DNA of 64,000 nucleotides from assembly GCA_965215065.1 (NCBI GenBank), contig OZ244037.1, positions 3,779,371 to 3,843,370 of the forward strand, given 5' to 3'. This document shows positions 22,907 to 58,377 of this stretch, piece after piece. Source of the DNA: Longimicrobiales bacterium (GTDB taxonomy: Bacteria > Gemmatimonadota > Gemmatimonadetes > Longimicrobiales > Gaopeijiaceae). Below the pieces are notes generated by a model. That model had not been told where the DNA came from. It saw nothing but the letters and a program-made list of their open reading frames with translations, and did no database searches. Both the position numbers and the translations under genes were made by a program. The number at the start of each line of letters is the position of its first letter. The first letter of the stretch is position 1.

Positions 22907-23848
22907 CTACTCGAAGCGATCGCCGGGTCGGGGTCCTCGTCCCCGCAACCAGGCCGCGGCATCCATGCGCCGCTTTCCCGCGGGCTGGACCTCGCCGATC
23001 CGGAGCACGCCGTCCCCCGTGGCCACGAAGAGGCCGCGCCTGGGGCCCGCGGCCACGACCTCGCCGGCGAGCCCCTTCGTCGGCATCGGAGGGCTGGCCA
23101 CCACCGCCGGACGAAAGAGCTTTACCGGTGCTCCGCCGAGCCGCGTCCAGGCTCCCGGGATCTCGTCCATCGCTCTGATGAGGTCGGCCACCGCGCGGGC
23201 ATCCCTCCCCCATTCGATCCGTGCCGACCGGCGATCGACCTTCGGCGCGAAGGTGGCCGCCTCGTGATCCTGCTCCACCTCCTCCACCGATCCCGCCTCA
23301 AGCCGGGCCAAGACTTCCACCACGAGGCGCGCGCCCATGTCCGCGAGGCGACGCGAAAGCAGGAACGCCGTGTCGCCGCGGCCGATGGGAAGCGCCTGCT
23401 GTGCCAGCACCGGTCCCGCGTCCATCGCCTCGACCATGCGCATGACGGAGACGCCCGTGACCGCGTGTCCGCGCTCGATGGCCCGGTTGATGGGGGCCGC
23501 GCCCCTGAGCGCCGGAAGGAGCGACGCGTGCAGGTTCAGCGAACCGAGACGCGGGATGTCCAAGACCCGGCGCGTCAGGATGCGCCCGTAGGCGACGACA
23601 ACCGAAACATCGGGACACAGCGCCCGGATCGCGGTCTCGAAGGACTCGCCCCGCGGGCGCTCGGGAGTAAACACCCGATATCCTTCGGCGTCCGCGACCC
23701 GTCTCACGACCGATGGTTGCAGCGTGCGGCCACGTCCGCGTGGCCGGTCCGGCCGGGTCACGACCCCGATCACACTGTGCCCGGCAGCCGCGAGGGCCCG
23801 CAGCGTGGGGACCGCAAACTCGGGCGTGCCCCAGAAGAGGATCTTCAC
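22907..23848 (-). CDS. fmt: Methionyl-tRNA formyltransferase
   Basis: 313 aa with KILFWGTPEFAVP, NLHASLLPALRGAAPINRAI and a C-terminal Fmt domain. GTG start at 23848 overlaps the stop of the upstream paralog (GTGA). Confidence 0.95.
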   Translation of the reverse strand: MKILFWGTPEFAVPTLRALAAAGHSVIGVVTRPDRPRGRGRTLQPSVVRRVADAEGYRVFTPERPRGESFETAIRALCPDVSVVVAYGRILTRRVLDIPRLGSLNLHASLLPALRGAAPINRAIERGHAVTGVSVMRMVEAMDAGPVLAQQALPIGRGDTAFLLSRRLADMGARLVVEVLARLEAGSVEEVEQDHEAATFAPKVDRRSARIEWGRDARAVADLIRAMDEIPGAWTRLGGAPVKLFRPAVVASPPMPTKGLAGEVVAAGPRRGLFVATGDGVLRIGEVQPAGKRRMDAAAWLRGRGPRPGDRFE

Positions 23849-25077
23849 GGGCTGTCCGCGCTAACCTGCCCCGGAACCGACCTCGCCTGTTCCGGATCCA
23901 GCGGAAGCAACCTGCGCCCGACGATGTGCGGCACATCCAGCGAATCCCACCGGACCCCCCAGACATGGGTTGCCGTCGCGGTGCTGACCCGCAGGGACTC
24001 GGGCAGGAGCACGCGCCGCGGCTCCTCGCCCGGGTCCCTCGGCACCGCGTAGTGCGTCCTGAGCGTGTCCGAAACCTCGTGGGTCGCGAGCCAGACTTCG
24101 CCGGAGGCTGCAAGCGTGAACTCCTTCGCTGCCGGCAGTTCCGGCCTGTAGAGCGCTTCGTCGTACATGCGCCGAAGCTCCTGCCTGGACATTCTCTCGG
24201 CACGCAACGGCGGGAACACCCTTCCCTGCATCCAATCATCCACCATTCGGGAAGTCAGCCTTCGCGGCTCGAATTGCAGGTGCCGGTGCCAGACCGTATC
24301 CCCCTCCCCGTTCACTTCGAACAGTTCGACCGCACCGGGCGCTTCGTTCCGCCGCATCACCACCGCCCCGCCCGGCATCAGCCGGAACTGATCCGAATCT
24401 CGAAACGGCTGGGCTGAGTATGCCCCACCGTCGGGAAACCGGAGGGCGAGAGTCTTGTTGCGAACGTCCAGCCACAACAACCGCTCGGGAACATTCCACT
24501 GCCCGGTGGCGGAACGGCTGACGCGCAGCAGGGGCTGTCGGTCCATGGGGTCGACACCGTCCGCTCCGACTTGAAGGCGTGAAGGGATTCTCGCAGCGCC
24601 CACGAAGACGCCGTCCCCGGGAGGGGCCACCGCAACGGCGAAGCCCTGGTAGCTGACCCGCATTCCCGGTCCCAGCGCGGTCTCGATCAGCTCCCCATCC
24701 GCCGTGAAATAGGCGTGTCGGGTTCCCCAGAAGTCCACTACGGACAAGGTGCCGTCCGCCTCGAAGAACAGGTCTCCGGGAACACCGAACTCGCCGGGGC
24801 CCTCTCCCCTCCCGCCCACGACGAAGAGCAGGGAACCCTCCGGAGACCACGCGCTGATCTGGGGGCTGCCGTGGTCCACGACGAAAACCCGGTTCCGCAC
24901 GGGATCGGCGCGCACGACCGGCCGCCGGAAGATCACATCCCGTTCGGGGGCGTCGCCGAACTGGTACTCCGCTTCGGTGATCCACATCGAAGGGGCGTCG
25001 CCGGAGGTGGCGCTCTCGCCGCCGCCGCATGCGGCGCACAGGGAGAGGATCAGCGCGTTGCGCAGACGAACGGCCAC
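23845..25077 (-). CDS. GxGPGEF-motif beta-propeller-like lipoprotein, tandem copy P1
   Basis: 410 aa from GTG 25077; an in-frame stop lies just upstream, which fixes this start. Signal with Cys (LILSLCAACGGG), GGRGEGPGEF, and a C-terminal third nearly identical to P2 and P3. Confidence 0.8.
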   Translation of the reverse strand: MAVRLRNALILSLCAACGGGESATSGDAPSMWITEAEYQFGDAPERDVIFRRPVVRADPVRNRVFVVDHGSPQISAWSPEGSLLFVVGGRGEGPGEFGVPGDLFFEADGTLSVVDFWGTRHAYFTADGELIETALGPGMRVSYQGFAVAVAPPGDGVFVGAARIPSRLQVGADGVDPMDRQPLLRVSRSATGQWNVPERLLWLDVRNKTLALRFPDGGAYSAQPFRDSDQFRLMPGGAVVMRRNEAPGAVELFEVNGEGDTVWHRHLQFEPRRLTSRMVDDWMQGRVFPPLRAERMSRQELRRMYDEALYRPELPAAKEFTLAASGEVWLATHEVSDTLRTHYAVPRDPGEEPRRVLLPESLRVSTATATHVWGVRWDSLDVPHIVGRRLLPLDPEQARSVPGQVSADSP

Positions 25078-25145
25078 GGAATCACCGGTGGGGGGAAGAG
25101 GGCAGCCCTGACGAAGCTCGTGTGTGTTGTAGACCGTGGCGATCC

Positions 25146-25200
25146 CTACCCGCCAAGGGGGGCTCCGACCGCTGCGGTCGCATCTTCAGCTTCCAGCCGG
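25146..25200 (-). pseudogene. Relic of the 3-prime end of the Cys-rich protein gene, carried along by the duplication
   Basis: Minus-strand translation ...AEDATAAVGAPLGG-stop parallels the true gene end ...SSNVTAAVGAPLDG-stop at 27889-27945. Flanking nucleotides are also homologous. Confidence 0.55.
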
Positions 25201-25231
25201 CACTCTCGCACACGGTGCTTCCCCGCTAAGC

Positions 25232-25261
25232 TAAGGGACACTGTCGTAAGGGACACTGTCG
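25232..25261. repeat. 15-bp perfect tandem duplication (taagggacactgtcg x2)
   Basis: Read directly, in the 221-bp spacer between P2 and P1. Confidence 0.85.
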
Positions 25262-25298
25262 CCACAATCCCAACATACGCGAAGCGGTGCCCGCTAAC

Positions 25299-26537
25299 CT
25301 AACCTGCCCTCGGGACCGCCCTCGCCTGTTCCGGATCCAGCGGAACCAACCTGCGCCCGACGATGTGCGGCACATCCAGCGAATCCCACCAGACCCCCCA
25401 GACATGGGTCGCCGTCGCGGTGCTGACCCGCAGGGACTCGGGCAGGAGCACGCGCCGCGGCTCCTCGCCCGGGTCCCTCGGTACCGCGTAGTGCGTCCTG
25501 AGCGTGTCCGAGACCTCATGGGTCGCGAGCCAGACTTCGCCCGTGGCGGCAATCGTGAATTCCTTCGCTGCCGGCAGGTGTTCCGGCGCGTAGACCGCTT
25601 CGTCATATATGCGCCGAAGCTCCTGCTTGGACACTCTCTCGGTATAGTACGGCGCGAACGCCTCGACCTGTTTCTCGACCCAGTCGTCCACCATTCGGGA
25701 AGCCAGCGCTCGCGGCTCGAATTGCAGGCGGCGGTGCCAGACCGTATCCCCCTCCCCGTTCACTTCGACCAGTTCGACCGCACCGGGCGCTTCGTTCCGC
25801 CGCATCACCACCGCCCCGCCCGGCATCAGCCGCAACTGATCCGAATCTTTAAACGGCTGGGCTGAGTATGGCCGCCCACCGTCCGGAAACCGGAGGGCGA
25901 GGGTCTTGTTGCGAACATCCAGCCACAACAACCGTTCGGGATCATTCCACTGCCCGGCGGCAGAACGGCTGACGCGCAGCAGGGGCTCTCTGTACATGGG
26001 GCTGACACCGTCCGCTCCCACTCGGACGTCCAAAGGAATGCTCGCAACGCCCACGTAGACACTGTCTCCGGGAGGAGTCACCACGACGCGGAAGCCTTGG
26101 TAGCTGACCCTCATTCCCGGTCCCAGCGCGGTTTCAATCAGCTCCCCTTCCGCCGTGAAATACGCGTGCCGAGCTCCCCCCATATCCACTACGGACAAGG
26201 TGCCGTCCGCCTCGAAGAACAGGTCTCCGGGAATACTGAACTCACCGGGGCCCTCTCCTCTTCCGCCCACGACGAAGAGCAGGGAACCGTCCGGGGACCA
26301 CGCGCTGATCTGGGGGCTGCCGTGGTCCACGACGAAGACCCGGTTCCGCACGGGATCGGCGCGCACGACCGGCCGCCGGAAGATCACATCCCGTTCGGGG
26401 GCGTCGCCGAACTGGTGCTCCGCTTCGGTGATCCATGTCGAAGGGGCGTCGCCGGAGGAGGTGGCGCTATCGTCGCCGCCGCATGCGGCGCACAGGGCAA
26501 GGATCAGCGGCAGGGCGCTGCGCAGACGAACGGCCAC
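25299..26537 (-). CDS. GxGPGEF-motif beta-propeller-like lipoprotein, tandem copy P2
   Basis: Start set at GTG 26537, homologous to the P1 start; the track ORF runs to 26573. LILALCAACGGD signal and GGRGEGPGEF. TAG stop at 25299. Confidence 0.8.
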   Translation of the reverse strand: MAVRLRSALPLILALCAACGGDDSATSSGDAPSTWITEAEHQFGDAPERDVIFRRPVVRADPVRNRVFVVDHGSPQISAWSPDGSLLFVVGGRGEGPGEFSIPGDLFFEADGTLSVVDMGGARHAYFTAEGELIETALGPGMRVSYQGFRVVVTPPGDSVYVGVASIPLDVRVGADGVSPMYREPLLRVSRSAAGQWNDPERLLWLDVRNKTLALRFPDGGRPYSAQPFKDSDQLRLMPGGAVVMRRNEAPGAVELVEVNGEGDTVWHRRLQFEPRALASRMVDDWVEKQVEAFAPYYTERVSKQELRRIYDEAVYAPEHLPAAKEFTIAATGEVWLATHEVSDTLRTHYAVPRDPGEEPRRVLLPESLRVSTATATHVWGVWWDSLDVPHIVGRRLVPLDPEQARAVPRAG

Positions 26538-26588
26538 GGATTCACGGATCGACAAACGAACCGGCCCGGACAATGCTCGTGTCCGCCG

Positions 26589-27815
26589 CTAACCTGCCCC
26601 CGGAACCGCCCTCGCCTGTTCCGGGTCGAGCGGAACCAGCCTCCGCCCGACGATGTGCGGCACATCCAGCGAATCCCACCAGACCCCCCAGACATGGGTC
26701 GCCGTCGCGGTGCTGACCCGCAGGGACTCGGGCAGGAGCACGCGCCGCGGCTCCTCGTCCGGGTCCCTCGGCACCGCGTAGTGCGTCCTGAGCGTGTCCG
26801 AAACCTCGTGGGTCGCGAGCCAGACTTCGCCGGAGGCTGCAAGAGTGAATTCTTTCGCTGCCGGCAGGTGTTCCGGCGCGTAGAGCGCTTCGTCGTACAT
26901 GCGCCGAAGCTCCTGCCTGGGCACTCTCTCGGCATAGTACGGCGCGATCACCCTTCCCTGCATCCAATCATCCACCATTCGGGAAGTCAGCCTTCGCGGC
27001 CCGAAGTGCAGGTGCCGGTGCCAGACCGTATCCCCCTCCCCGTTCACTTCGACCAGTTCCACCGCACCGGGCGCTTCGTTCCGCCGCATCACCACCGCCC
27101 CGCCCGGCATCAGCCGGAACTGATCCGAATCTCGAAACGGCTGGGCTGAGTATGCCCCACCGTCGGGAAACCGGAGGGCGAGAGTCTTGTTGCGAACGTC
27201 CAGCCACAACAACCGCTCGGGATCTTTCCACTGCCCGGTGGCGGAACGCCTGACGCGCAGCAGGGGCTGTCGGTCCATGGGGGCGACACCGTCCGCTCCG
27301 ACTTCAAGGTGTGAAGGGATGCTCGCAGCGCCCACGTAGACACCGTCCCCGGGAGGGGCCACCGAGACGGCGAAGCCCTGGTAGCTGACCCGCATTCCCG
27401 GTCCCAGCGCGGTTTCGATCAGCTCCCCTTCCGCCGTGAAATACGTGTGCCGGCTTCCCCAGTAGTCCACTACGGACAAGGTGCCGTCCGGCTCGAAGAA
27501 CAGGTCTCCGGGAACACCGAACTCGCCGGGGCCCTCTCCTCTCCCGCCCACGACGAAGAGCAGGGAACCCTCCGGGGCCCACGCGCTGATCTGCGGGCTG
27601 CCGTGGTCCACGACGAAGACCCGGTTCCGCACGGGATCGGCGCGCACGACCGGCCGCCGGAAGATCACATCCATCTCCGGTGCGTCGCCGAACTGGTACT
27701 CCGCTTCGGTGATCCATGTCGAAGGGGCACCGCCGCCGGTGGCGCTCTCGCCGCCGCCGCAGGCAGCGCACAGGGCAAGGATCAGCGGCAGGGAGCTGCG
27801 CAGACGAACGGCCAC
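26589..27815 (-). CDS. GxGPGEF-motif beta-propeller-like lipoprotein, tandem copy P3
   Basis: Start set at GTG 27815, homologous to the P1 start; the track ORF runs to 27899 and would overlap the upstream gene. LILALCAACGGG signal and GGRGEGPGEF. Confidence 0.8.
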   Translation of the reverse strand: MAVRLRSSLPLILALCAACGGGESATGGGAPSTWITEAEYQFGDAPEMDVIFRRPVVRADPVRNRVFVVDHGSPQISAWAPEGSLLFVVGGRGEGPGEFGVPGDLFFEPDGTLSVVDYWGSRHTYFTAEGELIETALGPGMRVSYQGFAVSVAPPGDGVYVGAASIPSHLEVGADGVAPMDRQPLLRVRRSATGQWKDPERLLWLDVRNKTLALRFPDGGAYSAQPFRDSDQFRLMPGGAVVMRRNEAPGAVELVEVNGEGDTVWHRHLHFGPRRLTSRMVDDWMQGRVIAPYYAERVPRQELRRMYDEALYAPEHLPAAKEFTLAASGEVWLATHEVSDTLRTHYAVPRDPDEEPRRVLLPESLRVSTATATHVWGVWWDSLDVPHIVGRRLVPLDPEQARAVPGAG

Positions 27816-27888
27816 GGAATCACCGCCGTGGAGGAAGAAGGCAGCCCTACTAACGAAGCTCGTGTGTGTTGTAGACCCGTGGCGATCC

Positions 27889-28437
27889 CTACCCGTCAAG
27901 GGGGGCTCCGACCGCTGCGGTCACGTTTGAGCTTCCGGATGGTGGTGCCGGTGTGCCATCGCCAGTCGGCCGTGCATGTGTTCCACGCCAAGCCAAGCGA
28001 TCCTCGGCTGCGTGCTCAGACTCAAGCGCCCGCAGGGGTATTCGAGCGATGAGCGAACGATCGCACTTTCGCATGACGACCGCGTTCTCTCCGTCCATGA
28101 CGAAGAAGTGGCCACCGTCTGCCGGCAGCATTTCACGCGCCATGACCATCTCGATCGCCTGCTGATCGGTCGCCGCAGCTCCGGTATCGCAGTCTCCCCC
28201 ATGAGCCTGACACCAGTGGTCGTCCGGGGTACCTTGCTGTGCGCAGTCCGCAGAGCCTCCGTGCGCGCCCTTGCACTTGGAGCTGTCCTCATCGAAGGAA
28301 CTGGGGCCGCATACCACGCATTCGCCGATTGTCGGCTGCGCCGCACCCACGACGGGACTTGCCGCCAGCAGCGCGCCGAAGAGCAGAGGCACGGCAACGA
28401 TGGTGGTGGACAGGGGATTATGGGTCGTGTCCCTCAT
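27889..28437 (-). CDS. Cys-rich secreted protein, unknown family
   Basis: Internal ATG 28437 is preceded by GGGAGGA 8 nt upstream. 182 aa with a signal peptide (TTIVAVPLLFGALLAASPVVGAAQ). Cys-rich head: GECVVCGPSSFDEDSSKCKGAHGGSADCAQQGTPDDHWCQAHGGDCD. Confidence 0.65.
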   Translation of the reverse strand: MRDTTHNPLSTTIVAVPLLFGALLAASPVVGAAQPTIGECVVCGPSSFDEDSSKCKGAHGGSADCAQQGTPDDHWCQAHGGDCDTGAAATDQQAIEMVMAREMLPADGGHFFVMDGENAVVMRKCDRSLIARIPLRALESEHAAEDRLAWRGTHARPTGDGTPAPPSGSSNVTAAVGAPLDG

Positions 28438-28562
28438 GGAAGCATCCTCCCTATGGGGATTTGGTTTCGCCGCCTTGTGTCCGTAGGGGCGGCAGGCTCC
28501 AACAACATGAACGATCATACTGTAACCTCCGACGACCTTCGACGCCAGTCGACCACACAGCG

Positions 28563-29078
28563 CTATCGCCCCGCACCGCCCTGCATCTTTCGCCACTTCT
28601 TGAGGAGGATCCCCCGCTTCAGCGGTGACAGCCGGTCGATGAAGAGCACGCCGTCGAGATGATCGACCTCGTGCTGGAGAGCCCGGGCCAGCATCCCGTC
28701 GGCCTCGATGCGCACGGCGTCTCCATCCAGAGAGACGGCGTCGACCGTGACGCGCACCGAACGGGTCACCTTCTCCTCGATCCCCGGAATGCTCAGGCAC
28801 CCTTCGGTCGCCTTGTCCGTCCGCCTGCTCGACTCGACGATGACCGGATTGATCAGCGCGTGCACGTGCCGGCTCTCGTCCTCGTTCGTGACATCGGCGA
28901 CGACGATACGCCGCGACACCCCCACCTGCGGCCCCGCCAAGCCGATCCCCTCGGCCTGATACATCGTGTCGAACATGTCGCGGGCCAGACGCCGCACCTC
29001 GTCGGTGACCTCCTCGACGGGCTCCGCCGTCCTGCGCAGAACCTTCGCGCCCATGATCTCGATATCCAGCATTGCCAC
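28563..29078 (-). CDS. def: Peptide deformylase
   Basis: 171 aa with GIGLAGPQVG, EGCLSIPG and HEVDHLDG, the three PDF motifs. Start is GTG 29078 or ATG 29072. Confidence 0.95.
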   Translation of the reverse strand: MAMLDIEIMGAKVLRRTAEPVEEVTDEVRRLARDMFDTMYQAEGIGLAGPQVGVSRRIVVADVTNEDESRHVHALINPVIVESSRRTDKATEGCLSIPGIEEKVTRSVRVTVDAVSLDGDAVRIEADGMLARALQHEVDHLDGVLFIDRLSPLKRGILLKKWRKMQGGAGR

Positions 29079-48306: not shown

Positions 48307-50597
48307 GCGGGTTCGTACCGTCGCAATCGGTTGGCGTTGGCCACCACGGTGACGGAACTGAACGCCATCGCCGCTCCGGCAATCATCGGCGACAGGAGAA
48401 GCCCCAGAGCGGGATACAGCACCCCTGCGGCCACGGGGATTCCGATCACGTTGTAGGCGAACGCGCCCACCAGGTTCTGCACGATGTTGCGGTGTGCGGC
48501 CCGCGAGATGAGGAGCAGCGTTTCGACGCCGCGCAGCGAGTCTCCGAGGAGGGCCGCGTCGCCGGTCTGCACGGCGACATCGGTCCCTCCCCCCATTGCG
48601 ATGCCCACATCCGCCGCGGCGAGCGCCGGTGCGTCGTTGACCCCGTCGCCGACCATCGCCACCACCCTGCCCCGCTCGCGCAGAGCGGCGATCTCCCGGG
48701 CCTTGTCCGCGGGCGAAACCCCGGCGCGGACATCCTTGATCCCCACCTGTCCGGCAACCCTGTCGGCGGCGGCCTCTTCGTCGCCGGTGAGCATCATGAC
48801 ATCGACACCCCGTTCGCTGAGGCGCTCGACGGCGGCCCGGGCATCTTCCCGAACGGCGTCGGACACACCGAAGACTCCTGCTGCGATCCCATCGACGGCA
48901 ACGACCACCGGCGTCGCTCCGTCCCGGGCAATTCGCTCCAAATGCCCGCTTAGGGATCCGGTCTCGACCCCCGCGGCCAGCAGAAACACGGGCGATCCGG
49001 CGAGCACCCGGCGGCCCTCCGCCACCGCCGAGACTCCCCTGCCCGGATGCGCCGCGAAGTTCGCCGCGTCACCGGGCCGAACGCCCATCTCGCGGGCATA
49101 CCGAACCACGGCGCGTGCGGCGGGGTGCTCCGACGACGCCTCCGCCGTCGCCGACATCCGCATGAACTCCACCTCGTCGAACGGCGGTGACGGCGCCGCG
49201 TGAACGACCGCCGGCTTGCCCAGAGTCAGGGTTCCGGTCTTGTCGAGAACCACGGTATCCACCCGGCGGGCCCTCTGGAGGGCCTCGCCGTCTCGGATCA
49301 GCACCCCGTGCGCCGCCGCCTTTCCGATGGCGATCATCACCGAAATGGGCGTGGCCAGACCCAGCGCGCAGGGGCACGCGATCACGAGAACCGAGACGGC
49401 GGTCACCATGGCGAAGTTCAGCCGGGGCTCGGGTCCGGCAAAGTACCATGTGGCGAAGGTGGCCAGAGCGACGGCGATCACCGCCGGAACGAAGCGGCCG
49501 GCCACCGCGTCGACCGTCTTCTGAATCTGCGGTTTGCTCCCCTGGGCGCGCCGCACCATGGCGACGATCCGGGCCAGCACGGTATCCTCTCCGACCCGGG
49601 TCACCTCGACGGTCAAGGCGCCGGTGCCGTTGACGGTGCCGCCCGCCACCTCGTCGCCCTGCGACTTGACGACGGGGACGCTTTCCCCGGTGAGCATCGA
49701 TTCATCGACCTCGCTGACGCCGCGCCGGACCCGTCCGTCCATGGGCACGCGACTGCCGGGGCGAACCAGGACAAGATCACCCGGATTCACCTCCGCCGCA
49801 GGAACGGTCTCGGTTCCGTCCGGCCCGAGCCGTTCGGCCGTTTCGGGGGAAAGGTCGAGCAGCGCCCTCAACGCCCTGGCGGTGCGGCCCTTCGCTCTCG
49901 ATTCCACGGCCTGGCCGAGAACCACCAGCGTGATCACTGCCGCGACCGCCTCGTAGAAGGGACGCCCGCTGCCCGCCGGAAAGAGCTCGGGCGCCAGCAA
50001 CACGGTCGTGGAGTAGAGCCACGCGGCGCCGGTTCCCAACGCCACGAGCGTGTCCATGTTCGCCGACCGCCTCCGGGCGGCGGCCCATGCCCCCGTAAAG
50101 AAACGCTGTCCCACATACAGGATGATCGGCAGCGTGAAGAGCCCCGAGAGCCACCAGGCCATGCGCAGCGCATCGGCGCTCATGCCCGGAAGTCCCGGAA
50201 TCATCTGAATCATCTCCCAGTGCCCGATCAGCACGACCGGGACGCCCAGGACCGCGCCGACCCGGAACCGGCGCATGAGGTCTCGATGCTCGGCTTCACG
50301 CTCCTCGTCCCCGGTGCGGGCCGCATCGACTGCATCGCGTCCGGTCCCCGCAAGCACTTCGGCCCGGTAGCCGGCCTCCTCGACCGCACCCACGAGCGAC
50401 GCGGGTTCGGCAACCCCTCCCGCCAGTCTCACCCGCGCGGTCTCGTCCACGAGATTCACGCTGGCCTCGGCGATGCCGTCCACCCCGGCGAGGGCTCTCT
50501 CCACCGTCGACACGCAGGAGGCGCAGTGCATCCCGCGTATGCGGAGCTGGATTTCGTCGCCTGCGTCTTCCAGCCGATTCAATCCCCGCCGATTCAC
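48303..50597 (-). CDS. copA: Copper-translocating P1B-type ATPase
   Basis: HMA domain [15 protein letters not shown], the CPC motif in [19 protein letters not shown], and [10 protein letters not shown]. Start set at GTG 50597 (GTGA overlap with the holA stop). ATG 50645 is the alternative and would overlap holA by 52 nt. Confidence 0.93.
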
Positions 50598-51598
50598 GAT
50601 CTCGCTCTCCCGGAGATCCGGGTCAGGCGGCACGAGAGAAGCCATTCCTCCATGAGTACGTCATCCGCAATCGCGCTGGCTTTGAGGAGTCGATCCAGCC
50701 GACGAAGGCCGCGGACGGCCCGTGCCAGCTCCGCCCGTGTCCAACGACTAGCCTGCCCTGCAATGCGACGGGCCGCAAAGCGCTGGAAAGGGGGCAGCAC
50801 GGACTGCACCGCCCGGGCTCCGCCTTCCGACGCGATACCGATCCGCAGCAGATGCGTCGCAAGCCAGATCACCAGCCCGACTGCCGTCTCCCCCTGTTGC
50901 AGCAGGATCGGGAGACCCCGCACCGCCTCCTCGATTCTGCGGTTTCCCACGAGATCGAACCAGGCCCAACGATCCTGGGTCGGCAACCTGAGCCCGCCGC
51001 GTCGCACCGCGTCGACATCCACCGGGGCATCATGACCCACCATCTCGGCCAGCTTCCTCACCTCTTGGGCGAGCACCCCGAGATCGGTCCCCGCGGCCCC
51101 CACCAATGCCTGCGCACCCTCGATCTCCACGGTCACGCCGATTTCCTCCCGAGCCCAGGCGACCAGCCAGCCGGGGATGCCGTCGACCGGCACGGGCTTG
51201 AAATCGACCGCCGTCGCAACCCGGGCCAGATCCTTGTAGAACTTGGCCTTGGAGCGCCGAGGCAGTGTGGCCTGAAGGATCAGGACCAATCCGGGGGGGG
51301 GATCCTGCGCGGCCGCCAAGATGACCTTGCGGGCCTTGGGACTTCCGGCCAGAGCTTCCACTTCCTTGAGGTGCACCACACGCCACTCCGCCATCATGGG
51401 CGGCGTCTCCACGACCGACGCCAGTCGCTCCACCGACACTTCGGATCCGAAGAGACGGTCGAGGTTGAAGTCGCGCGTCGCCGGATCGGCGTACCGCTCC
51501 ACGAGGAATTCGGCGGCGGCCCGCTTCCGGAAACCGTCATCGCCGTGAAGGAAGAAAGCCCCGCCTTCGCGGGCGGCGCGCAGAGAAACCGGGATCAA
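50594..51598 (-). CDS. holA: DNA polymerase III delta subunit
   Basis: 334 aa with [18 protein letters not shown] and [11 protein letters not shown], plus overall HolA length and pattern. TTG start. Confidence 0.82.
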
Positions 51599-51681
51599 GT
51601 TCGTCAGCGGTCGTTCGGCGTTTGGCAGCAGCGATGTCCGAAGCCTAATCGGGATGGACCGCTGCCGCGAGACCCTGGGAA

Positions 51682-51786
51682 GGCCGAGACGCGATTACCG
51701 CTTCTCGATGCACCGGACGCCCGCACGGGCAGCGCGCACGGAATGTGCGGGGGCCGAGACGCGATTACCGCTTCGAGATGCATCGG
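51682..51786. repeat. ~35-bp direct repeat with 70-bp period, duplicating the 3-prime end of the anti-sigma-like gene
   Basis: ggccgagacgcgattaccgcttc occurs at 51682-51704 and 51752-51774, with similar continuation. The second copy contains the real stop (RCISKR-stop). The first would read RCIEKR-stop. Confidence 0.7.
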
Positions 51787-52040
51787 GCCCCGTACTCGCC
51801 GGACAGCGACTCCGAGGTTCCGATCAGGTTCTGTGCCTCGCTTTCCAGCAGCACGGCGACGCCTGTTCGAATCACCCGGTCATAGCGCCGACACGACGAA
51901 CAGGAGTCCAGGTGAGCCAGCGCCCTGGTCCGCGCGGTCGGGTCAAGCTGATGGTCACGGTACTCCGAATACACATCGAGGAACCACCGACAGATCGGCG
52001 GTGAACCGAAGGGGCTGACTGCACTCGGATACTCGTTCAT
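51765..52040 (-). CDS. Zinc-finger (zf-HC2, HxxxCxxC) anti-sigma-factor-like protein, soluble
   Basis: 91 aa from ATG 52040: ...ICRWFLDVYSEYRDHQLDPTARTRALAHLDSCSSCRRY... This shows the C-x(n)-H-x3-C-x2-C ZAS pattern. No TM segment. Confidence 0.6.
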   Translation of the reverse strand: MNEYPSAVSPFGSPPICRWFLDVYSEYRDHQLDPTARTRALAHLDSCSSCRRYDRVIRTGVAVLLESEAQNLIGTSESLSGEYGARCISKR

Positions 52041-52105
52041 GGTCAAGACGCGCGTCAGCAGCACGCGACAACGGCTTAGGGAGACTTTCCGGCATCCACA
52101 CACTG

Positions 52106-52134
52106 TATACCGTCATGGATGCGTGTTTGTTTCC
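52106..52134 (-). promoter_or_regulatory. Candidate ECF-type promoter (GGAAAC - 16 nt - CGGTATA) upstream of the anti-sigma-like gene
   Basis: The minus strand reads GGAAAC aaacacgcatccatga CGGTATA. This resembles ECF consensus forms such as TGAAAC-N16-CGTA. It lies in an AT-rich spacer 66-94 nt upstream of ATG 52040. Confidence 0.2.
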
Positions 52135-52189
52135 CTAATCCTAACCCAAAGAGGACTCGAACTCCCGGGCCGGCGACTCGGGCGACCGT

Positions 52190-53387
52190 TCACGGATCGT
52201 CTGGATGTCGCTCGGTCGCGCCGGGCAGCATGGCCCTGTCGAACTGCAGCACGCGGATCACCGGTACATCGAGAGGCCCCCGGGCTATTCCGTAGATCCG
52301 ATTTCCGCCGACCGCCCGCACATCCAGATCGGACGGCAGCGTGACCGCCGTCGAGCCGGTGCCGAACGGCGCGAACACATGCCAGTCCGTGAAGCTCCAG
52401 TCCGTCGTGTCGATCATCCCGCGTACCCACACGAATCCTCTGGTGTCCACGATGATCTTCGATATACCGGGCTTCAACGCCGGCAGGACCCACCCCGCGT
52501 CCCGGGGGATCACCGTCCGCCTGGCCCGTTCTCGTGCAGTCAACCGCTCGCGATCCGTCGCCGACACCGGATCTCCCGCCAACCCGGTCTTCACGACGCT
52601 CGCGACCTTCGCGGAATCGGCCACCAGCGAATACCACGACATGGTTCCCGACAAGCCGTCAGCCACCACGACGACACTGTCCCCGGCCACGCCCCAGTGA
52701 CCTGCAATGCCGAAACGAGTGGCCGCCGGGCCCCAGGGCACACCCTCGCTGCGCTCGTACCAAATCGCGTCAAGCGATTCATACTCCAGCAACTCGGTCA
52801 TGACGCGACTGCTGTCCTGCAACAACAGAACATGTCCCGGAACGCCCACCTTGCCGCTCACCGGGTTCCAAGTGAATCTCGGCGGCGCCACCCCAAACCC
52901 AGGTGTCGGCACGCATCGGGATGACAAGCGCGAGCGGAGTGTCGCGAACCGTCGGCATCCGATGAGCCTCGATGAACTTTCCGTCCAAGCCGAAGTAGTG
53001 AACAAGGTACTGCCCGATGTCGAACACCAGGAGACGGTCTTCGCGCAATACGAGCTCAATGGCCCGGGAAAACTCGGCTGGGCCCGCGGCTCGTCTTCCG
53101 AATCTCCCGAATCTCCCGATCAACTCTCCGGTCGCCGAAAGATGGATGACGGACTGGTCGACCCCGTCCAGCACGTAGAAGTCTCCGTCGGGACCAACCT
53201 TGATGTCGACAGGCCGCGTCAGTTCGGTACCGGGACGCATTCCATCCACCACGAGCACTTCTTCAACGGCGAGCGCCGCACCGGACGGCGGTTCCTGAGC
53301 GACGACGGGCACCGCCGGAGGCAAGTATGATGCACCGATTGTTGCTAGCCCGATTCTTGGTGCTCTAGTCAACGCTGTCACGTCCAT
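52190..53387 (-). pseudogene. Fifth member of the GxGPGEF beta-propeller-like family, interrupted by a frameshift (or sequencing error)
   Basis: ATG 53387 follows GGGAGG. The N-terminal part lies in the frame of track ORF 52779..53447 (...GRFGRFGRRAAGPAEF...RADTWVWGG). The C-terminal part lies in the frame of 52190..53059 (APPRFTWNPVSG...GFVWVRG...IYGIARGPLDVPVIRVLQF). The frames switch near 52881-52900. The joined length of ~399 aa fits the family. Confidence 0.5.
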
Positions 53388-53401
53388 ATCCTCCCTGGTT
53401 G

Positions 53402-53584
53402 TCAAGCTAGATGACTTACCTTGGATCCCTTGTCGCCGCGACCGCAATACTGATCGCAGCTCTCGGGCGCCGGATCATTGTAGCACTCCAAGCAGACCGC
53501 CACCGCGGTGGATCCACCGGAGACGGCCACGAGGTAGGTGAGCGAAATGATCGCTCCGGACAGAAGAGTGCCGAGAATCTTCAT
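53402..53584 (-). CDS. 60-aa Cys-rich signal-peptide protein (candidate secreted peptide)
   Basis: ATG 53584 is preceded by GGAAAGGAAG and overlaps the upstream ORF stop (ATGA). Sequence: MKILGTLLSGAIISLTYLVAVSGGSTAVAVCLECYNDPAPESCDQYCGRGDKGSKVSHLA. It ends 14 nt before the propeller-family gene start. Confidence 0.5.
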   Translation of the reverse strand: MKILGTLLSGAIISLTYLVAVSGGSTAVAVCLECYNDPAPESCDQYCGRGDKGSKVSHLA

Positions 53585-53985
53585 GATGCTTCCTTTCCGC
53601 TTCTGGTTGACATTTCGGCTCTCAGTGGTCCCCATGACCACCGGAACTGAAGGATCTCGCGCTTCCCGCGGCGTAAGTCCGTAAACCGGAAATACGAGCC
53701 ACTTCGGCTAAACCAAGCCAGCTCATATGGATCACTCGACTGCGCATACAGAACTCCGCCCCGGTGTGCCGTGACGACATGACCATTCCCCGGAATAGTG
53801 ATAGTCGAACTCGGTGTTGAATGATCGGAAGTGTCACGAGCCACTACCCGCAACTGGAATTCTCCGTCGCGTATCTCGGCCAACAACCACATCGCGTCAT
53901 TTGTAACCGCAATGTCGCGTATGGTGATGTCGGATGCCACATACCGCTGAACCAGTGAATCTCGTTGGTCGATGATCCCAACCAT
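53581..53985 (-). CDS. Hypothetical protein, possibly the C-terminal remnant of a disrupted larger gene
   Basis: 134-aa ORF MVGIIDQRDSLVQRYVASDITIRDIAVTNDAMWLLAEIRDGEFQLRVVARD... The same frame stays protein-like upstream across an in-frame TGA at 54019-54021. Hand count gives about 54% G+C over 53701-53940. Confidence 0.35.
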   Translation of the reverse strand: MVGIIDQRDSLVQRYVASDITIRDIAVTNDAMWLLAEIRDGEFQLRVVARDTSDHSTPSSTITIPGNGHVVTAHRGGVLYAQSSDPYELAWFSRSGSYFRFTDLRRGKREILQFRWSWGPLRAEMSTRSGKEAS

Positions 53986-54211
53986 GGAGTCAGAAACCAG
54001 AAAGATCGTGTCATGGGTTCACGAGTACAGCTCTCCGGCCAGGGCGAAGTCCCTCGATTGACAGACCAAGGCCTTGTTACAATGGCGAGCGCGAAGATCA
54101 CTGCGAAAACGGCAAGTGCGCTCCTCCGGGTAATTCGGAAGTGCGACAGGCGTGCTCGATGCTGGGCAGAACGCCGTAGGTCAGCGAGTCGCCGTCCATT
54201 GGGGTCTCCAT
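53986..54211 (-). pseudogene. Fragments of a membrane-anchored protein directly after the ECF sigma gene (decayed anti-sigma-like gene?)
   Basis: Three successive frames carry fragments. The first is a 37-codon ORF from ATG 54211 (METPMDGDSLTYGVLPSIEHACRTSELPGG...). The second is a TM-like stretch, SALAVFAVIFALAIV. The third continues (...RDFALAGELYS-TGA-THDTIFLVSDS) into ORF 53581..53985. Confidence 0.3.
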
Positions 54212-54247
54212 CTGGGTCTGCCTTTCTCTCACAGATCTTCCACGACG

Positions 54248-54886
54248 CTACTTGATCATCGGAGCGATGATGTGCGCGAACCTGTTCCTGGCCCGGTTCA
54301 GCCGACTCTTGACGGTGCCCAAGGCGCAACCGGTGATTTCGGCCATCTCTTCGTAGGTCTTGCCGTGCAGCTCGCGCAGGACGAAGACCACCCGGTGATG
54401 CTCCGGCAAAAGGGCTGCCGCTTCGTCCACCTTCTCACGCAGGAAGCGCTTGCGGTAGAGGTCGTCCGGGCGCGTGGCCGGGTCTTCCCACTCCAACGGG
54501 CGGGAGTCGGCTTCCCAGCTCTTCGTCAGGGACTGGAAGAGCACCAGCGGGTCGCGGGAACGGCTGCGGAGCTCGTTCTTCGCCAAGTTTCCGGCGATGG
54601 TGTAGATCCAAGTGGAGAACTTCCGGGTCTGGTCGAAGCTGTGAAGGTGGCGATAGACACGAATGAAGGTTTCCTGGATCAGATCCTCCGCCCGTTCACG
54701 ATCTCGAATCATGCGGAAGACGAAATTCCGGAGGCGCTTGTCGTATCGGCGCACCAACTCGGTAAACGCGCGCTCCTCACCGTCGAGGCAGCACTGCACG
54801 ACCTGGCTGTCCTCGAGCTCAGCGAGTCTTTTCCTGCCCAGGCCGGTAGCTCTCCGGTCAGCGAGAATCGGGTTCGCGTGTCCCAT
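54248..54886 (-). CDS. ECF (group 4) RNA polymerase sigma-70 family factor
   Basis: 212 aa from ATG 54886. Region 2 is FTELVRRYDKRLRNFVFRMIRDRERAEDLIQETFIRVY. Region 4.2 HTH is YEEMAEITGCALGTVKSRLNRARNRF. One hand-counted line gives about 53% G+C. Confidence 0.9.
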   Translation of the reverse strand: MGHANPILADRRATGLGRKRLAELEDSQVVQCCLDGEERAFTELVRRYDKRLRNFVFRMIRDRERAEDLIQETFIRVYRHLHSFDQTRKFSTWIYTIAGNLAKNELRSRSRDPLVLFQSLTKSWEADSRPLEWEDPATRPDDLYRKRFLREKVDEAAALLPEHHRVVFVLRELHGKTYEEMAEITGCALGTVKSRLNRARNRFAHIIAPMIK

Positions 54887-55070
54887 GATTCCACCATCCT
54901 CTCGGCCATGGTCCGGGTTCAAAGTCACATTATTTATTGCGCATGAATCGTGCCGCCGCTCCAGACGCACCAAGACGCGGCTTGGCTCCGGCCATCTGTC
55001 CTCTGGGGGTGACACCGGATTCCCGCGCACAGGACACTACGCGTCTTGCCGACCCGGCGCGCTGCCGCTC

Positions 55071-55137
55071 CCGGGTGCTCATGCGGCCTCCCGGGTGCTC
55101 ATGCGGCCTCTCGGTGCTCATGCGGCCTCCCGGTGCC
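55071..55137. repeat. 20-bp tandem repeat x3.4 (ccgggtgctcatgcggcctc)
   Basis: Two perfect 20-bp units, one 19-bp unit and a partial unit. The repeat lies between the NUDIX stop (55146) and the ECF sigma start (54886). Confidence 0.85.
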
Positions 55138-55145
55138 CGCGCGGG

Positions 55146-55709
55146 TTATCCCCGGGCTGCCAGGAGGAACCGCACGGCGAAGAGTATGGTCACGATCGAC
55201 TTCGCGTCCGTCATTTCGCCGCGATGAATCAGCTCGACGGCCCGCGAAAGGGGCATGCGCTCGACCTCGAGGAACTCGTCCCGGTCGGCGCAGCTCGTGC
55301 CGGGCACAAGATTGAAGGCCGCATAGAGGTGGATCTGCTCGGTCGCGAACCCGGGCGTGGTATGAATGGTCGTGAGTTCCACGAGACGGGCGGCGCGGAA
55401 GCCTGTCTCTTCTTCGAGTTCGCGCCGGGCGCAGTCTTTCGGGGTCTCATCGGGCTCGATGATTCCCGCCGGCACCTCGTAGATGACGCCGCCCGCCGCG
55501 TAGCGATACTGCCGCAGCAGCAATACTTCCGATCCACCGCCGCGGTCCGGCTCCAACACGGGCAGGACCGCGGCAGCACCCCGGTGTCGGATCAGTTCCA
55601 GCTCGCCCACCGACCCGTCCGGAAACCGCACCGTGTCGACGCTCAGGTGAACGACCCTCCCGTCGTGGATGACGTCCGTCGAGACGCAGGCGCGACGATC
55701 TTCGGTCAT
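55146..55709 (-). CDS. NUDIX hydrolase (ADP-ribose pyrophosphatase-like)
   Basis: 187 aa with the Nudix box GIIEPDETPKDCARRELEEETG. Confidence 0.9.
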   Translation of the reverse strand: MTEDRRACVSTDVIHDGRVVHLSVDTVRFPDGSVGELELIRHRGAAAVLPVLEPDRGGGSEVLLLRQYRYAAGGVIYEVPAGIIEPDETPKDCARRELEEETGFRAARLVELTTIHTTPGFATEQIHLYAAFNLVPGTSCADRDEFLEVERMPLSRAVELIHRGEMTDAKSIVTILFAVRFLLAARG

Positions 55710-55729: not shown

Positions 55730-57088
55730 TCAGCCCCCTTCGGCATGCACCGTTACCGGGCCGATCTTCAGATCCTCCAGCCCCGGGCCTACGGCATCGG
55801 CATCGCCGACCACGACCGTGCGCAACGTTTGCGGCCGGATGTATCTTCTCGCGGCTTCCGCGGCATCATCCCGCGTAACTTCTCTTACCCGCTCCCGATA
55901 GCTTCGGTAGTAGTCCCCAGGCAGGCCGAACACGATCAGGCTCGCGATTCTGGACGCGACCTGTCCCGTCGTTTCCATGCGCAGGGGGAAGACCCCCGCA
56001 AGATACCTCGTCGCAGCGTCGACCTCTCCGCTCGTCGGACCGGACTCCGCGAGCGCTTCGATCTCCTTGACCATCTCACGAACCGCTGCGGCCGTCACCG
56101 AGTTCTCGACCGCCGTCGAAACCGCGAACGGGCCGCGGTCCCGGCGCGCTGCGAACATCGAGCGGACTCCGTAGGTGAAGCCGTGCCGCTCCCGAAGGTT
56201 GAGGTTGAGACGCGACGAGAACGAACCGCCGAGCACGAGGTTCACCACCGTAAGGGGGAGGTAGTCCTCGATGAAGCGCGATACGCCGATATGGCCGAGG
56301 CGAATCTCGGACTGCACGGAGCCGGGGCGATGCACGACATGGATCGCCCGTTCGGGCTCGCGTCCCCGGACGACCGCCTCCGGCGGAGTGTCGACGATTG
56401 CGCTCCAGTCGCCGAATCCCTGCTCCGCGAGGTGACGCGCCTCTCGGCTCTCCACGTCGCCGACCACGACCAGCTCTGCCTGGGCGGGCCCGTAGCGCGC
56501 CGCCGCGTAATCGCGGGCGTGGCCGGACTCCACGGTGCTCAGCGAAGTCTCGGTGCCGCCCACGGGCCGGGCGTAGGTATCTCCCTCGGCGTAGATGAAG
56601 CGCGCGTGGGAATCGGCGGCGAGAGAAGCGGGGTCCATACGGCGGTGCGCCGCCGTCGCGAGACGCTGAGCCTTGTAACGGTCGAATTCCGCGGCATCGA
56701 ACGCCGGCGAACGCACCATTTCGGCAAGCAGCGGCATCGCATCGCCGAGGTGTTCCGCGAGGCAGGAAACGGCGACGGTGGTGGAGTCCCATCCGGTCGC
56801 GGTTCCGAAACTCGCGCCGATGTCTTCGAGCCTCCGGGCTAGTCGAGTGCCGGACAGCCGGGTGCTCCCTCCTTCCAGCGCGTGCCCGGCGAGGAGCGCC
56901 AGACCTTCGCGACCGGGGGACACCGAAGTTTCGCCTGCTCGCAGCACGACCATGGCCGTGACGAGGCGGAAGGGAAGCTTGTGCACGACACGCACGCCCA
57001 TCCCGTTTCCGAGACGATCGTCGACGACCGCAGGAAACTCGTAGGGGCGGATCGGGCCCGGCGGAGGAGGCGAGTTCCGGTCGGTCAT
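55730..57088 (-). CDS. M16-family (pitrilysin) peptidase-like protein, non-catalytic partner type
   Basis: 452 aa with M16 fold-like sequence. It has GLALLAGHALEGGS in place of the HxxEH zinc site. ATGA overlap with the upstream M16 gene. Confidence 0.82.
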   Translation of the reverse strand: MTDRNSPPPPGPIRPYEFPAVVDDRLGNGMGVRVVHKLPFRLVTAMVVLRAGETSVSPGREGLALLAGHALEGGSTRLSGTRLARRLEDIGASFGTATGWDSTTVAVSCLAEHLGDAMPLLAEMVRSPAFDAAEFDRYKAQRLATAAHRRMDPASLAADSHARFIYAEGDTYARPVGGTETSLSTVESGHARDYAAARYGPAQAELVVVGDVESREARHLAEQGFGDWSAIVDTPPEAVVRGREPERAIHVVHRPGSVQSEIRLGHIGVSRFIEDYLPLTVVNLVLGGSFSSRLNLNLRERHGFTYGVRSMFAARRDRGPFAVSTAVENSVTAAAVREMVKEIEALAESGPTSGEVDAATRYLAGVFPLRMETTGQVASRIASLIVFGLPGDYYRSYRERVREVTRDDAAEAARRYIRPQTLRTVVVGDADAVGPGLEDLKIGPVTVHAEGG

Positions 57089-58377
57089 GAGGCCTGCACC
57101 GGGATGTAGCGGACGAGGGCCCGGTTGCCGGGGTGCAGGTGGCTCCGGCTCCAGCTTCGGACTTCCTCTAGTGTGACCCGGCGAAGGCGTTTCAGATCAT
57201 CGTTCAGACGCGCCGGATCGTCGAAGTGCGTCGCGTACATCGAGAGAAGGTCGGCTCGCGTCGCAACCTGCTGCAATGCCCTCAGCATGCGCGTTTCAGC
57301 CCCGGTCACGGCGCGGGCGACCTCGTCGTCGGTCAGCGTCTCCGCGTTGTCGATCTCTCGGGCCAACGCAACCTCGAGGTCGTTCACGTCGGTGTCCGGG
57401 AAGCCCGTGGCGACCACCAGAAAAATACTCGCTCCCGACGTGAGCGGGAGAAGGTGGCAGGAAGCCGACTTGGCCAGCCGCCGCCGCACGAGGCGGTCAT
57501 ACAATCGCGAAGACCTGCCGGTGCCGAGGCAATGAGCCACCACGTCGCCGGCGTAGAAGAGATCGGTCGTAAACGGAGGCACCCGCGCCGCGGCGTACAG
57601 CCTGGGTAGAGGCACGGCCCCCGGCACATCTTCTCGAAGGGTCTCGCCGGTCGACAAGGGAATGCGATCGTTTCCGGGAAGGGGCGGCGGCGGTCCGGAC
57701 GGGATTGCGCCGAAGTAGCGGTCGACCCGGTCGCGCGCGTGCCCCGGATCGAAGTCTCCGCAGATCGAAATCACCGCGTTGTTCGGCACGTAGTGTGCGG
57801 CGAAGAAGTCGCGGACATCGTCCAGCGTTGCGGCCGCGATGTCCTCGAGCCTTCCGATCACCGTGTGATGGTACGGATGACTCTCGGGGAAAAGGAGGGC
57901 CTGAATGCGTTCGTCCCAGTCCCCGTAGGGCTGGTTGTCGTACCGTTCCTTCCGCTCGTTCATGACGACCCGGCGCTGGTTTTCCAGCTTCTCGGCGTTC
58001 ATCGCGGGAAGCATCCATCCCATCCGGTCCGCTTCCAGCCAGAGCGCCAGATCCAGGTAGTGGGACGGCACGGTGTCGAAGTAGTTGGTGCGATCGAACC
58101 AGGTGGTGGCGTTCGCGGAGCCTCCCACGCGTTCGATGTGCTTGAAGTGTCCGTTCTTGGGGACATGGGCCGAACCCTGGAACATCATGTGCTCGAACAG
58201 GTGGGCGAGACCCGTTCTGCCGGGCGCTTCATTCCGCGAACCGACTCCGTACCACAGGTTCACACTGGTGACCGGAGTCGTCGTGTCCGGCGCCATGACC
58301 AGCCTGAGCCCGTTGCCGAGCCTGTGCTCTTTGACCTCGATCATTTTTCGCACCCCCACTTCCTCATATTTTTCCAC
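57085..58377 (-). CDS. M16-family zinc metallopeptidase
   Basis: 430 aa with the inverted zincin motif in GLAHLFEHMMFQGS (HxxEH) and a downstream NATT...T.Y block. Confidence 0.9.
   Translation of the reverse strand: MEKYEEVGVRKMIEVKEHRLGNGLRLVMAPDTTTPVTSVNLWYGVGSRNEAPGRTGLAHLFEHMMFQGSAHVPKNGHFKHIERVGGSANATTWFDRTNYFDTVPSHYLDLALWLEADRMGWMLPAMNAEKLENQRRVVMNERKERYDNQPYGDWDERIQALLFPESHPYHHTVIGRLEDIAAATLDDVRDFFAAHYVPNNAVISICGDFDPGHARDRVDRYFGAIPSGPPPPLPGNDRIPLSTGETLREDVPGAVPLPRLYAAARVPPFTTDLFYAGDVVAHCLGTGRSSRLYDRLVRRRLAKSASCHLLPLTSGASIFLVVATGFPDTDVNDLEVALAREIDNAETLTDDEVARAVTGAETRMLRALQQVATRADLLSMYATHFDDPARLNDDLKRLRRVTLEEVRSWSRSHLHPGNRALVRYIPVQAS

Follow-up and report, generated by a model that had tools for sequence, protein, structure and literature searches.

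A conserved ECF sigma factor locus of the Gemmatimonadota, likely disrupted by a decaying accessory insert in a Longimicrobiales bacterium

The DNA analysed here is a stretch of 64,000 nucleotides (hereafter the window) from a Longimicrobiales bacterium of the Gemmatimonadota (NCBI GenBank assembly GCA_965215065.1, contig OZ244037.1, forward-strand positions 3,779,371 to 3,843,370). Between a NUDIX hydrolase gene and holA it carries an extracytoplasmic function (ECF) sigma factor gene and the remainder of a zinc-binding anti-sigma (ZAS) gene, separated by pseudogenes. This interval is likely to be a conserved ECF sigma/ZAS locus that an accessory insert, itself in decay, has disrupted, and not an acquired sigma factor cassette. 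In the ancestral state, the genes of a core ECF sigma factor and of a membrane-anchored zinc anti-sigma factor would have stood between NUDIX and holA. A three-gene accessory module would have been inserted behind the sigma stop codon, ahead of the anti-sigma promoter, and all three of its genes would have become pseudogenes, with lesions that differ between two strains of the species. From the anti-sigma gene, deletion and replacement would have removed the central part (helix 4, the transmembrane (TM) helix and most of the outer domain), leaving a stump of 91 amino acids (aa). The features on which this account is built are given below; every gene of the locus lies on the minus strand.

55146..55709, minus strand: NUDIX hydrolase gene (Pfam NUDIX, E 1e-19), conserved upstream neighbour of the sigma factor gene
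54248..54886, minus strand: ECF sigma factor gene, 212 aa, RpoE/SigW-like, with Sigma70_r2 and r4_2
52136..54245, minus strand: insert of about 2.1 kb, specific to the lineage and delimited by homology breaks, which separates the sigma stop codon from the anti-sigma promoter
53581..54232, minus strand: pseudogene of a membrane-anchored protein (about 330 aa when full), in three frames by six-frame reading, with an in-frame TGA at 54019-54021 and the 3' third gone
53402..53584, minus strand: truncated gene of a Cys-rich secreted protein, 60 aa, with a signal peptide and C-x2-C ... ESCDQxC
52190..53387, minus strand: pseudogene of a DUF5128-type six-bladed beta-propeller, two overlapping open reading frames (ORFs) in different frames
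51765..52040, minus strand: truncated zf-HC2 (ZAS) anti-sigma gene, 91 aa (zf-HC2 32.5 bits, cutoff 22.2)
51680..51847, no strand: replacement segment of about 170 nt in the former anti-sigma gene, with no homology to relatives between 51848 and 51679
51645..51679, minus strand: relic of the ancestral anti-sigma 3' end (...PD-TAG), followed by the conserved holA leader (blastn, 51679-50500 against L001 11804-12984)
50594..51598, minus strand: holA (DNA polymerase III delta; Pfam DNA_pol3_delta), conserved downstream neighbour
55730-58377, minus strand: two M16 peptidase genes, upstream of NUDIX
beyond holA, further downstream, minus strand: copA and mutS (annotation of the window)

Relatives of the locus were found by scanning species-representative genomes with the neighbouring M16 peptidase, which matched Gemmatimonadota metagenome-assembled genomes (MAGs), including sponge-associated bins and one complete Longimicrobiales chromosome, at 77-80% protein identity; the closest relatives of the window are sponge-associated MAGs. 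A metagenome scan with the sigma factor returned more than 513 relatives, from which 80 loci were kept, and nearly all of these that reach the neighbouring genes show the NUDIX-sigma-antisigma-holA synteny. The order M16b-M16a-NUDIX-sigma-antisigma-holA-copA-mutS is found in the loci L001, L002 and L004, with a sigma factor 84% identical to that of the window, and in the distant Gemmatimonadales loci L005 and L006 the sigma factor gene likewise stands between NUDIX and holA. About 70 related loci across the Gemmatimonadota have the order NUDIX, ECF sigma factor, zf-HC2 anti-sigma factor, holA. NUDIX is syntenic with the sigma factor gene in most of the 89 loci examined and holA in 69 loci, and an HxxxCxxC ORF lies between sigma and holA in 68 of the 69 loci having both. 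This synteny across the phylum indicates that the sigma and anti-sigma genes are ancestral residents and not acquired genes. The initial annotation, made from the sequence alone, had described the block between holA and a NUDIX gene as holding an ECF sigma factor, and these identities are borne out by Pfam. The sigma factor has the ECF (group 4) architecture (PF04542, 73 bits; PF08281, 55 bits; no region 3) and scores 115.5 bits on TIGR02937 (cutoff 42.9); the named equivalogs remain below their cutoffs (TIGR02939 (RpoE), 130 against 236 bits; PRK09641, 119.5 against 209 bits).

The extent of the foreign DNA follows from the breaks in homology. Between the M16 genes and 54246, just beyond the sigma stop codon, homology with L001, L002 and L004 is unbroken and takes in NUDIX, the sigma factor gene and the spacer that separates these two. 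It restarts at the promoter-like element in front of the anti-sigma gene, continues in the anti-sigma domain core (51993-51848), is lost again after 51848 and is back at 51679, 81 nt upstream of holA. The stop at 54246 and the restart at the promoter element place the insert at about 52136-54245. None of the 69 loci with sigma and holA has the insert, and in none was a relative of the propeller found; among them are distant outgroups whose sigma and anti-sigma genes are separated by 14-120 nt. The distance from the sigma stop codon to the holA start is 2649 nt in the window, the largest among the 69 loci (median 766 nt, 5-95% range 577-1025), and that from the sigma stop codon to the anti-sigma start is 2207 nt against a median spacer of 119.5 nt in 68 loci, in agreement with the abnormal separation of about 2.2 kb noted initially; between the anti-sigma stop codon and the start of holA the median distance is 65 nt. 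Comparison of the holA-NUDIX interval among relatives, which had been suggested as a check, gives a divided answer, since only the segment at about 52136-54245 is absent from them, while the sigma gene, the anti-sigma gene and the NUDIX-sigma spacer, more than one-third of the block claimed as acquired, are present. Library scans detected no tRNA in the region and no integrase or transposase in this strain, and no Rfam family was matched in the region.

The same locus has been remodelled independently in other lineages (L003, L006 and L031). An unrelated 522-aa transporter gene lies between sigma and anti-sigma in L031 (2257-3825), from which the sigma/anti-sigma spacer seems to be insertion-tolerant, and 3.5 kb separates NUDIX from sigma in L006 (11893-15454).

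The base composition of the block was examined against the 64-kb window as baseline. The islet of lower G+C described initially is borne out, as 51650-55140 has 61.6% G+C against 67.1% for the window and is the lowest among all the 3.5-kb windows (mean 0.672, sd 0.019); the 1-kb windows at 53-54 kb fall to 56-58%, and 53701-53940, estimated by hand at about 54%, has 54.2%. At the third codon position the picture is different. The G+C content there (GC3), for which 40 genes of the window served as the reference (0.819 +/- 0.038), is 0.82 in the sigma factor gene, and its total G+C is 61.8%, so that the figure of about 53% drawn from one line of this gene does not describe it as a whole. The sigma orthologs have about 60% total G+C and a GC3 of 0.83, the same as the gene in the window, and the low total G+C is therefore attributable to amino-acid composition; this is a caution that the low total G+C of a gene can stem from amino-acid composition alone. 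The anti-sigma gene has a GC3 of 0.75, the N-terminal and C-terminal halves of the propeller 0.69 and 0.79, the Cys-rich ORF 0.69 and the remnant of the broken first gene 0.56. The dip thus has two sources, namely the amino-acid composition of a sigma factor gene with native codon usage and a low-GC3 insert; of the two deviations for which windowed statistics had been proposed, that in G+C is present, and that in codon usage is limited to about 52880-54247 (GC3 0.56-0.69) and spares the sigma gene. The insert probably came from a lower-GC donor or is long decayed.

These data bear directly on the proposal that all 3.4 kb of the block, with the sigma and anti-sigma genes, form a regulatory cassette that was gained by horizontal transfer and has the repeat clusters as its ends. 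The low total G+C across the block and the repeats at either end agree with it. It is nevertheless very improbable, given the synteny of sigma and anti-sigma across the phylum, the native sigma GC3, the homology of relatives running through the NUDIX-sigma spacer, and the nature of the repeats themselves, which are mutually unrelated and do not flank non-homologous DNA. What survives of the idea of an acquired, partly eroding cassette is its lineage-specific, compositionally deviant and eroding part; the sigma and ZAS genes are resident in L001, L002 and L004 and in the loci of the phylum at large. One of the two repeat clusters is a tandem array:

55068..55133, no strand: tandem array of a 20-bp unit, x3.3, directly behind the NUDIX stop codon (TRF score 118)

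The other, within the replacement segment of the anti-sigma gene, is a direct repeat whose copies at 51682-51721 and 51752-51791 are spaced by 70 bp and share 23 nt exactly. Both had been reported initially and both exist, the array with its copy number refined to x3.3. The array is missing from the aligned NUDIX-sigma spacers of L001-L004 and is 40 nt (two units) shorter in a sister strain described below; neither cluster has another copy in the window, where shuffled sequences give an expectation of 0 matches. They are products of local slippage or duplication. As att-like borders they were considered and rejected, being unrelated in sequence, confined to a single locus and placed at neither of the homology breakpoints. 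What they enclose is the resident sigma/anti-sigma locus and not an acquired block, and both are situated beyond the borders of the insert.

The content of the insert was resolved by homology with metagenome contigs. The broken first gene aligns with an intact 329-aa protein of L093 (37% identity over 114 aa, E 1.5e-16, residues 115-227 only). The Cys-rich ORF aligns with the first 51 aa of a 153-aa Cys-rich protein of L093 (E 9e-6) and also matches a 142-aa Cys-rich protein of L098 (E 1e-3), the order of the genes agreeing with that of the window. The propeller is 45% identical to P0007, an intact 389-aa protein on contig L093 (GC 56%). P0007 is encoded behind the membrane-anchored 329-aa protein and two Cys-rich secreted proteins (153 and 150 aa) in L093 (98-3329); L098 (654-3425) has the three module genes in the same order (353, 142 and 382 aa), and in L095 (4538-6140) a Cys-rich gene adjoins a propeller gene. 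A module therefore recurs on unrelated metagenome contigs, in which a DUF5128 propeller of 380-390 aa stands with a membrane-anchored protein of 330-350 aa and with Cys-rich secreted proteins of 140-150 aa, one or two in number, and the homology with L093 and L098 in the same gene order identifies the insert as a decayed copy of this three-gene module. The frame-broken fragments noted right after the sigma gene are confirmed by six-frame reading; that they might be a decayed anti-sigma gene was considered and rejected, since the broken gene is homologous to the first gene of the module. The Cys-rich peptide and the propeller, initially taken for a pair of genes, do not stand as such: the former is a truncated gene, cut to about 40% of full length and about 90 codons short against its intact homologs, and the latter carries a +1 frameshift, caused by one A too many in the AAA run at 52895-52897.

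A word-index search gave almost no relatives of the propeller, and the family was recovered by an exhaustive HMMER search, in which the C-terminal half found 324 representatives, mostly of 360-400 aa. The PF17170 (DUF5128) cutoff of 22.9 bits is passed by seven of the eight tested propeller homologs (28-37% identity to the propeller of the window); P0007, the closest homolog, falls just under it with 22.1 bits, and the propeller of the window, with 10.6-13 bits, is a divergent relative and not a scored member. A metagenome scan with the propeller gave no match, P0007 had none among plasmids, a search with the Cys-rich peptide matched only itself, and the broken first gene found only a sister-strain protein, P0006, which led to the loci L090-L092. 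The membrane-anchored and Cys-rich proteins of the module have no match in Pfam, and no description of the pairing of this propeller sub-family with Cys-rich and about 330-aa membrane-anchored proteins was found in the literature searched. The recurrent module of membrane-anchored protein, Cys-rich secreted protein and DUF5128 propeller is a lead in itself.

Two further occurrences of the propeller family were observed. Within the window, 23845-28800 (minus strand) encodes three tandem propeller lipoproteins of 410-436 aa with a GRGEGPGEF motif, behind a Cys-rich secreted protein (ECVVC...); this cluster has native GC3 and consists of distant paralogs of the propeller/Cys pair of the insert. 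On a 3.4-Mb contig, a family member in L096 (4001-7507) adjoins IS21-type (IstB) and mutator-type transposase genes, a context which hints that the propeller family often resides in mobile or variable regions.

The lesions of the module are real and recent. The sequence of 51500-55200 is identical in contigs from four runs of four samples at depths up to 112x, and all the other long genes of the window are intact. A sister strain (runs X5 and X6; NCBI and ENA contigs L090-L092), with flanks 98% identical, has the same insert with other lesions. It is without the extra A at 52895-52897, so that ...RADTWVGVAPPRFTWNPVSGKV is read there in one frame, and has two other frameshifts, one from the loss of 1 nt at 53023 and one from an additional T near 53356. 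A 9-bp tandem repeat in the propeller gene (TCTCCCGAA x2.9, 53094-53119), coding for GRFGRFGRR, has one unit fewer in the sister strain. The Cys-rich ORF is deleted, 125 other letters replace 54017-54232, and an IS3-type transposase gene (HTH_21 and rve, 387 aa; L091 1995-3158) lies at the position of 52626 and interrupts the propeller pseudogene; the 64-kb window has no copy of this transposase. The sister strain also departs from the window upstream of 52072, where the anti-sigma promoter lies. The sigma factor gene, in comparison, differs between the strains at one nonsynonymous and four synonymous sites in 639 nt.

It might be supposed that errors of sequencing or assembly account for the frame breaks, or that recoding (programmed frameshifting, TGA read-through) overcomes them, and that the module in the insert still functions. 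That the propeller has a single +1 shift, within a short run of A, and that there is one in-frame TGA would suit such a view. It is scarcely probable in the face of the identical sequence from the four runs, a first-gene remnant spread over three frames without its last third, a Cys-rich gene about 90 codons short, the other lesions and the insertion sequence (IS) of the sister strain, and the intact state of the remaining long genes of the window.

The initial annotation had named 51765..52040 an intact zinc-finger anti-sigma-like gene; the zf-HC2 ORF is there and retains HLDSCSSC, an HxxxCxxC zinc motif, and it is not intact, having 91 aa against a median of 186 aa (range 155-294) among the orthologs of 68 loci, 67 of which have a TM-like segment. 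The stump has no TM segment, its highest 19-residue Kyte-Doolittle mean being 0.83. Aligned with 20 orthologs, it parts from them immediately behind helix 3 (...RTGVAVL), and the conserved (D/E)F..RL..R block of helix 4 is missing. In class I anti-sigma domains it is helix 4 that makes contact with domain 2 (region 2) of the sigma factor (PMC7406223). The stump thus has neither a complete four-helix anti-sigma domain nor, at 2207 nt, adjacency to the sigma gene. The 51680-51847 segment has taken the place of the middle of the former coding sequence, and the sister strain has 195 unlike letters there; the anti-sigma gene of L001 ends at 11838. In L003 there is no anti-sigma gene at all, and sigma is followed by holA after 109 nt (L003 12880-12989). 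From these features the stump is most likely non-functional, and the sigma factor, like that of L003, probably acts today with no working anti-sigma partner. The locus would then represent a natural loss of the anti-sigma factor of a phylum-wide ECF sigma factor, caught at different stages in two strains and one relative.

Several observations weigh against this account and have to be set beside it. At the borders of the insert in this strain, neither a donor nor a mobility gene nor a target-site duplication was found. The stump ORF is open, its HxxxCxxC motif is kept and so is its promoter in this strain, and a soluble, RsrA-like function is for these reasons possible. Lastly, the count of nonsynonymous and synonymous changes in the stump between the strains (9 and 2 sites in 236 nt) covers the 11 listed of 13 differences. 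The near-native GC3 of the C-terminal half of the propeller (0.79) fits long residence better than recent transfer; it also speaks for an insert ancestral to the clade and lost by the relatives. Such an origin is most improbable, as the insert is missing from every one of the 69 sigma and holA loci, distant outgroups included, and no propeller relative was found in any of them.

A more substantial alternative regards the locus as remodelled, not degraded, with the 91-aa zf-HC2 protein as an anti-sigma factor that still works, has newly become soluble and senses redox state in the manner of RsrA. Besides the open ORF, the retained zinc motif and a zf-HC2 score above the cutoff, the conserved ECF-type promoter kept in this strain agrees with it, and zinc motifs are enriched in soluble class I anti-sigma domain proteins (PMC7406223). 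We consider it unlikely, as the helix-4 motif is lost, the stump carries the nine nonsynonymous against two synonymous changes and diverges by about 5% between the strains against about 2% in the flanks, the promoter region upstream of 52072 is replaced in the sister strain, and L003 has dispensed with the gene altogether. Degradation of a resident locus around a decaying insert remains the favoured account.

Two promoter-like elements of the locus are conserved beyond the species.

54940..54955, minus strand: sigma-54-type -24/-12 element, CGGCACG-ATTC-ATGC, which begins 69 nt ahead of the start codon of the sigma factor gene
52106..52135, minus strand: ECF-type promoter-like element, GGGAAAC-N16-CGGTATACAGTGTG (CGGTATA), upstream of the anti-sigma gene

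The first is an invariant block in the spacer alignment of relatives. CGGCACGATTCATGC at 54941-54955 has the features demanded of a sigma-54 promoter sequence, that is, GG and GC 10 nt apart in a TGGCAC-N5-TTGCA-like sequence upstream of a gene. The pattern nGGnAnG-N4-nTGC occurs within 260 nt upstream of the sigma factor gene in 67 of 78 loci, an enrichment of about 50-fold over its background elsewhere in the same loci (0.065 per kb), and in many relatives the element reads TGGCAC-N5-nTGCA. Sigma factor expression is probably set mainly by this upstream promoter, as judged from the motif. Upstream of it, a conserved inverted-repeat block, TGTCC...GGTGTCACC...GGACA (54996-55040, minus strand), is invariant in five aligned relatives and could be an activator binding site.

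The second element had been proposed initially as an ECF-like promoter candidate (GGAAAC-N16-CGGTATA) before the anti-sigma-like gene; it is present, and its counterpart stands at the orthologous place in L001, L002 and L004 as GGGAAC-N15-CGGTATACAACGTG (also CGGTATAC). GGAAC-N15-18-CG(G/T)TA was found in 19 of the 47 sigma/anti-sigma spacers of at least 70 nt, at a density of 1.86 per kb against a background of 0.0115 per kb. The motif lies in front of the anti-sigma gene and not the sigma gene, and it is missing from loci with short spacers. It was also considered as the mark of a local regulon including the propeller cluster at 23.8-28.8 kb, which was rejected as there is no strict match elsewhere in the window. 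A scan for sigma-70 promoters and terminators gave chance-level results only.

Taken together, the conserved sigma-54-type and ECF-type motifs and the 65-nt gap between anti-sigma and holA suggest a loop in which sigma-54 would drive the ECF sigma factor gene and the ECF sigma factor the anti-sigma gene and perhaps holA. The ECF-type promoter before the stump may have been kept because it also reads into holA. It is tentatively proposed, as a possibility held at somewhat less than even, that the locus is an undescribed core unit of the Gemmatimonadota. In such a unit, a sigma-54-type promoter with an upstream palindrome would control one ECF sigma factor gene, and the sigma factor would control its own zinc anti-sigma factor in many lineages and probably holA through an intergenic ECF-type promoter; the species of the window and L003 would be natural mutants without the anti-sigma arm. 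The phylum-conserved sigma-54-type promoter before an ECF sigma gene, together with an ECF-type promoter before anti-sigma and holA, is a second lead from this locus.

Comparison with known systems places the locus nearest to the membrane-bound class I ZAS pairs, such as SigW-RsiW of Bacillus subtilis and RpoE-ChrR of Rhodobacter sphaeroides. It shares with them a sigma factor with regions 2 and 4 only, a neighbouring zf-HC2 anti-sigma domain followed by one TM helix and an outer domain in 67 of the 68 orthologous loci, and an AAC/CGT-type promoter at the locus. Unlike in those systems, the pair is split here by 2.1 kb of pseudogenes and the 91-aa anti-sigma protein is without helix 4 or TM; the ECF-type promoter stands before the anti-sigma gene and the sigma gene has the sigma-54-type element; and the sigma factor reaches no equivalog model. 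With the soluble ZAS proteins of the SigR-RsrA and SigH-RshA type (ECF12), the stump has in common its short length, predicted solubility and HxxxCxxC motif. It differs from them in being derived by truncation from a membrane-anchored ortholog and in its relaxed constraint between strains; it scores 22 bits on TIGR03988 against a cutoff of 62.5, and the sigma factor is not SigR-like by model scores.

The propeller resembles the DUF5128 or BF3164-type propellers (PF17170; NHL-like) in that its homologs at 28-45% identity match PF17170, have 360-400 aa and carry a G-x-GPxEF-like motif, and it departs from them in that the copy in the window is below the Pfam cutoff and frameshifted and belongs to a sub-family paired with Cys-rich and about 330-aa membrane-anchored proteins. 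As an islet, the interval is mostly ordinary, a lineage-specific accessory segment decaying within a conserved locus. It is like pseudogene-bearing indel hot spots and the IS-mediated decay in host-associated bacteria in its strain-specific frameshifts, deletions and IS gathered in one accessory segment between flanks that are 98% identical; unlike in those cases, the decay here lies inside a phylum-conserved regulatory locus, and the partner gene of the regulator has also been lost.

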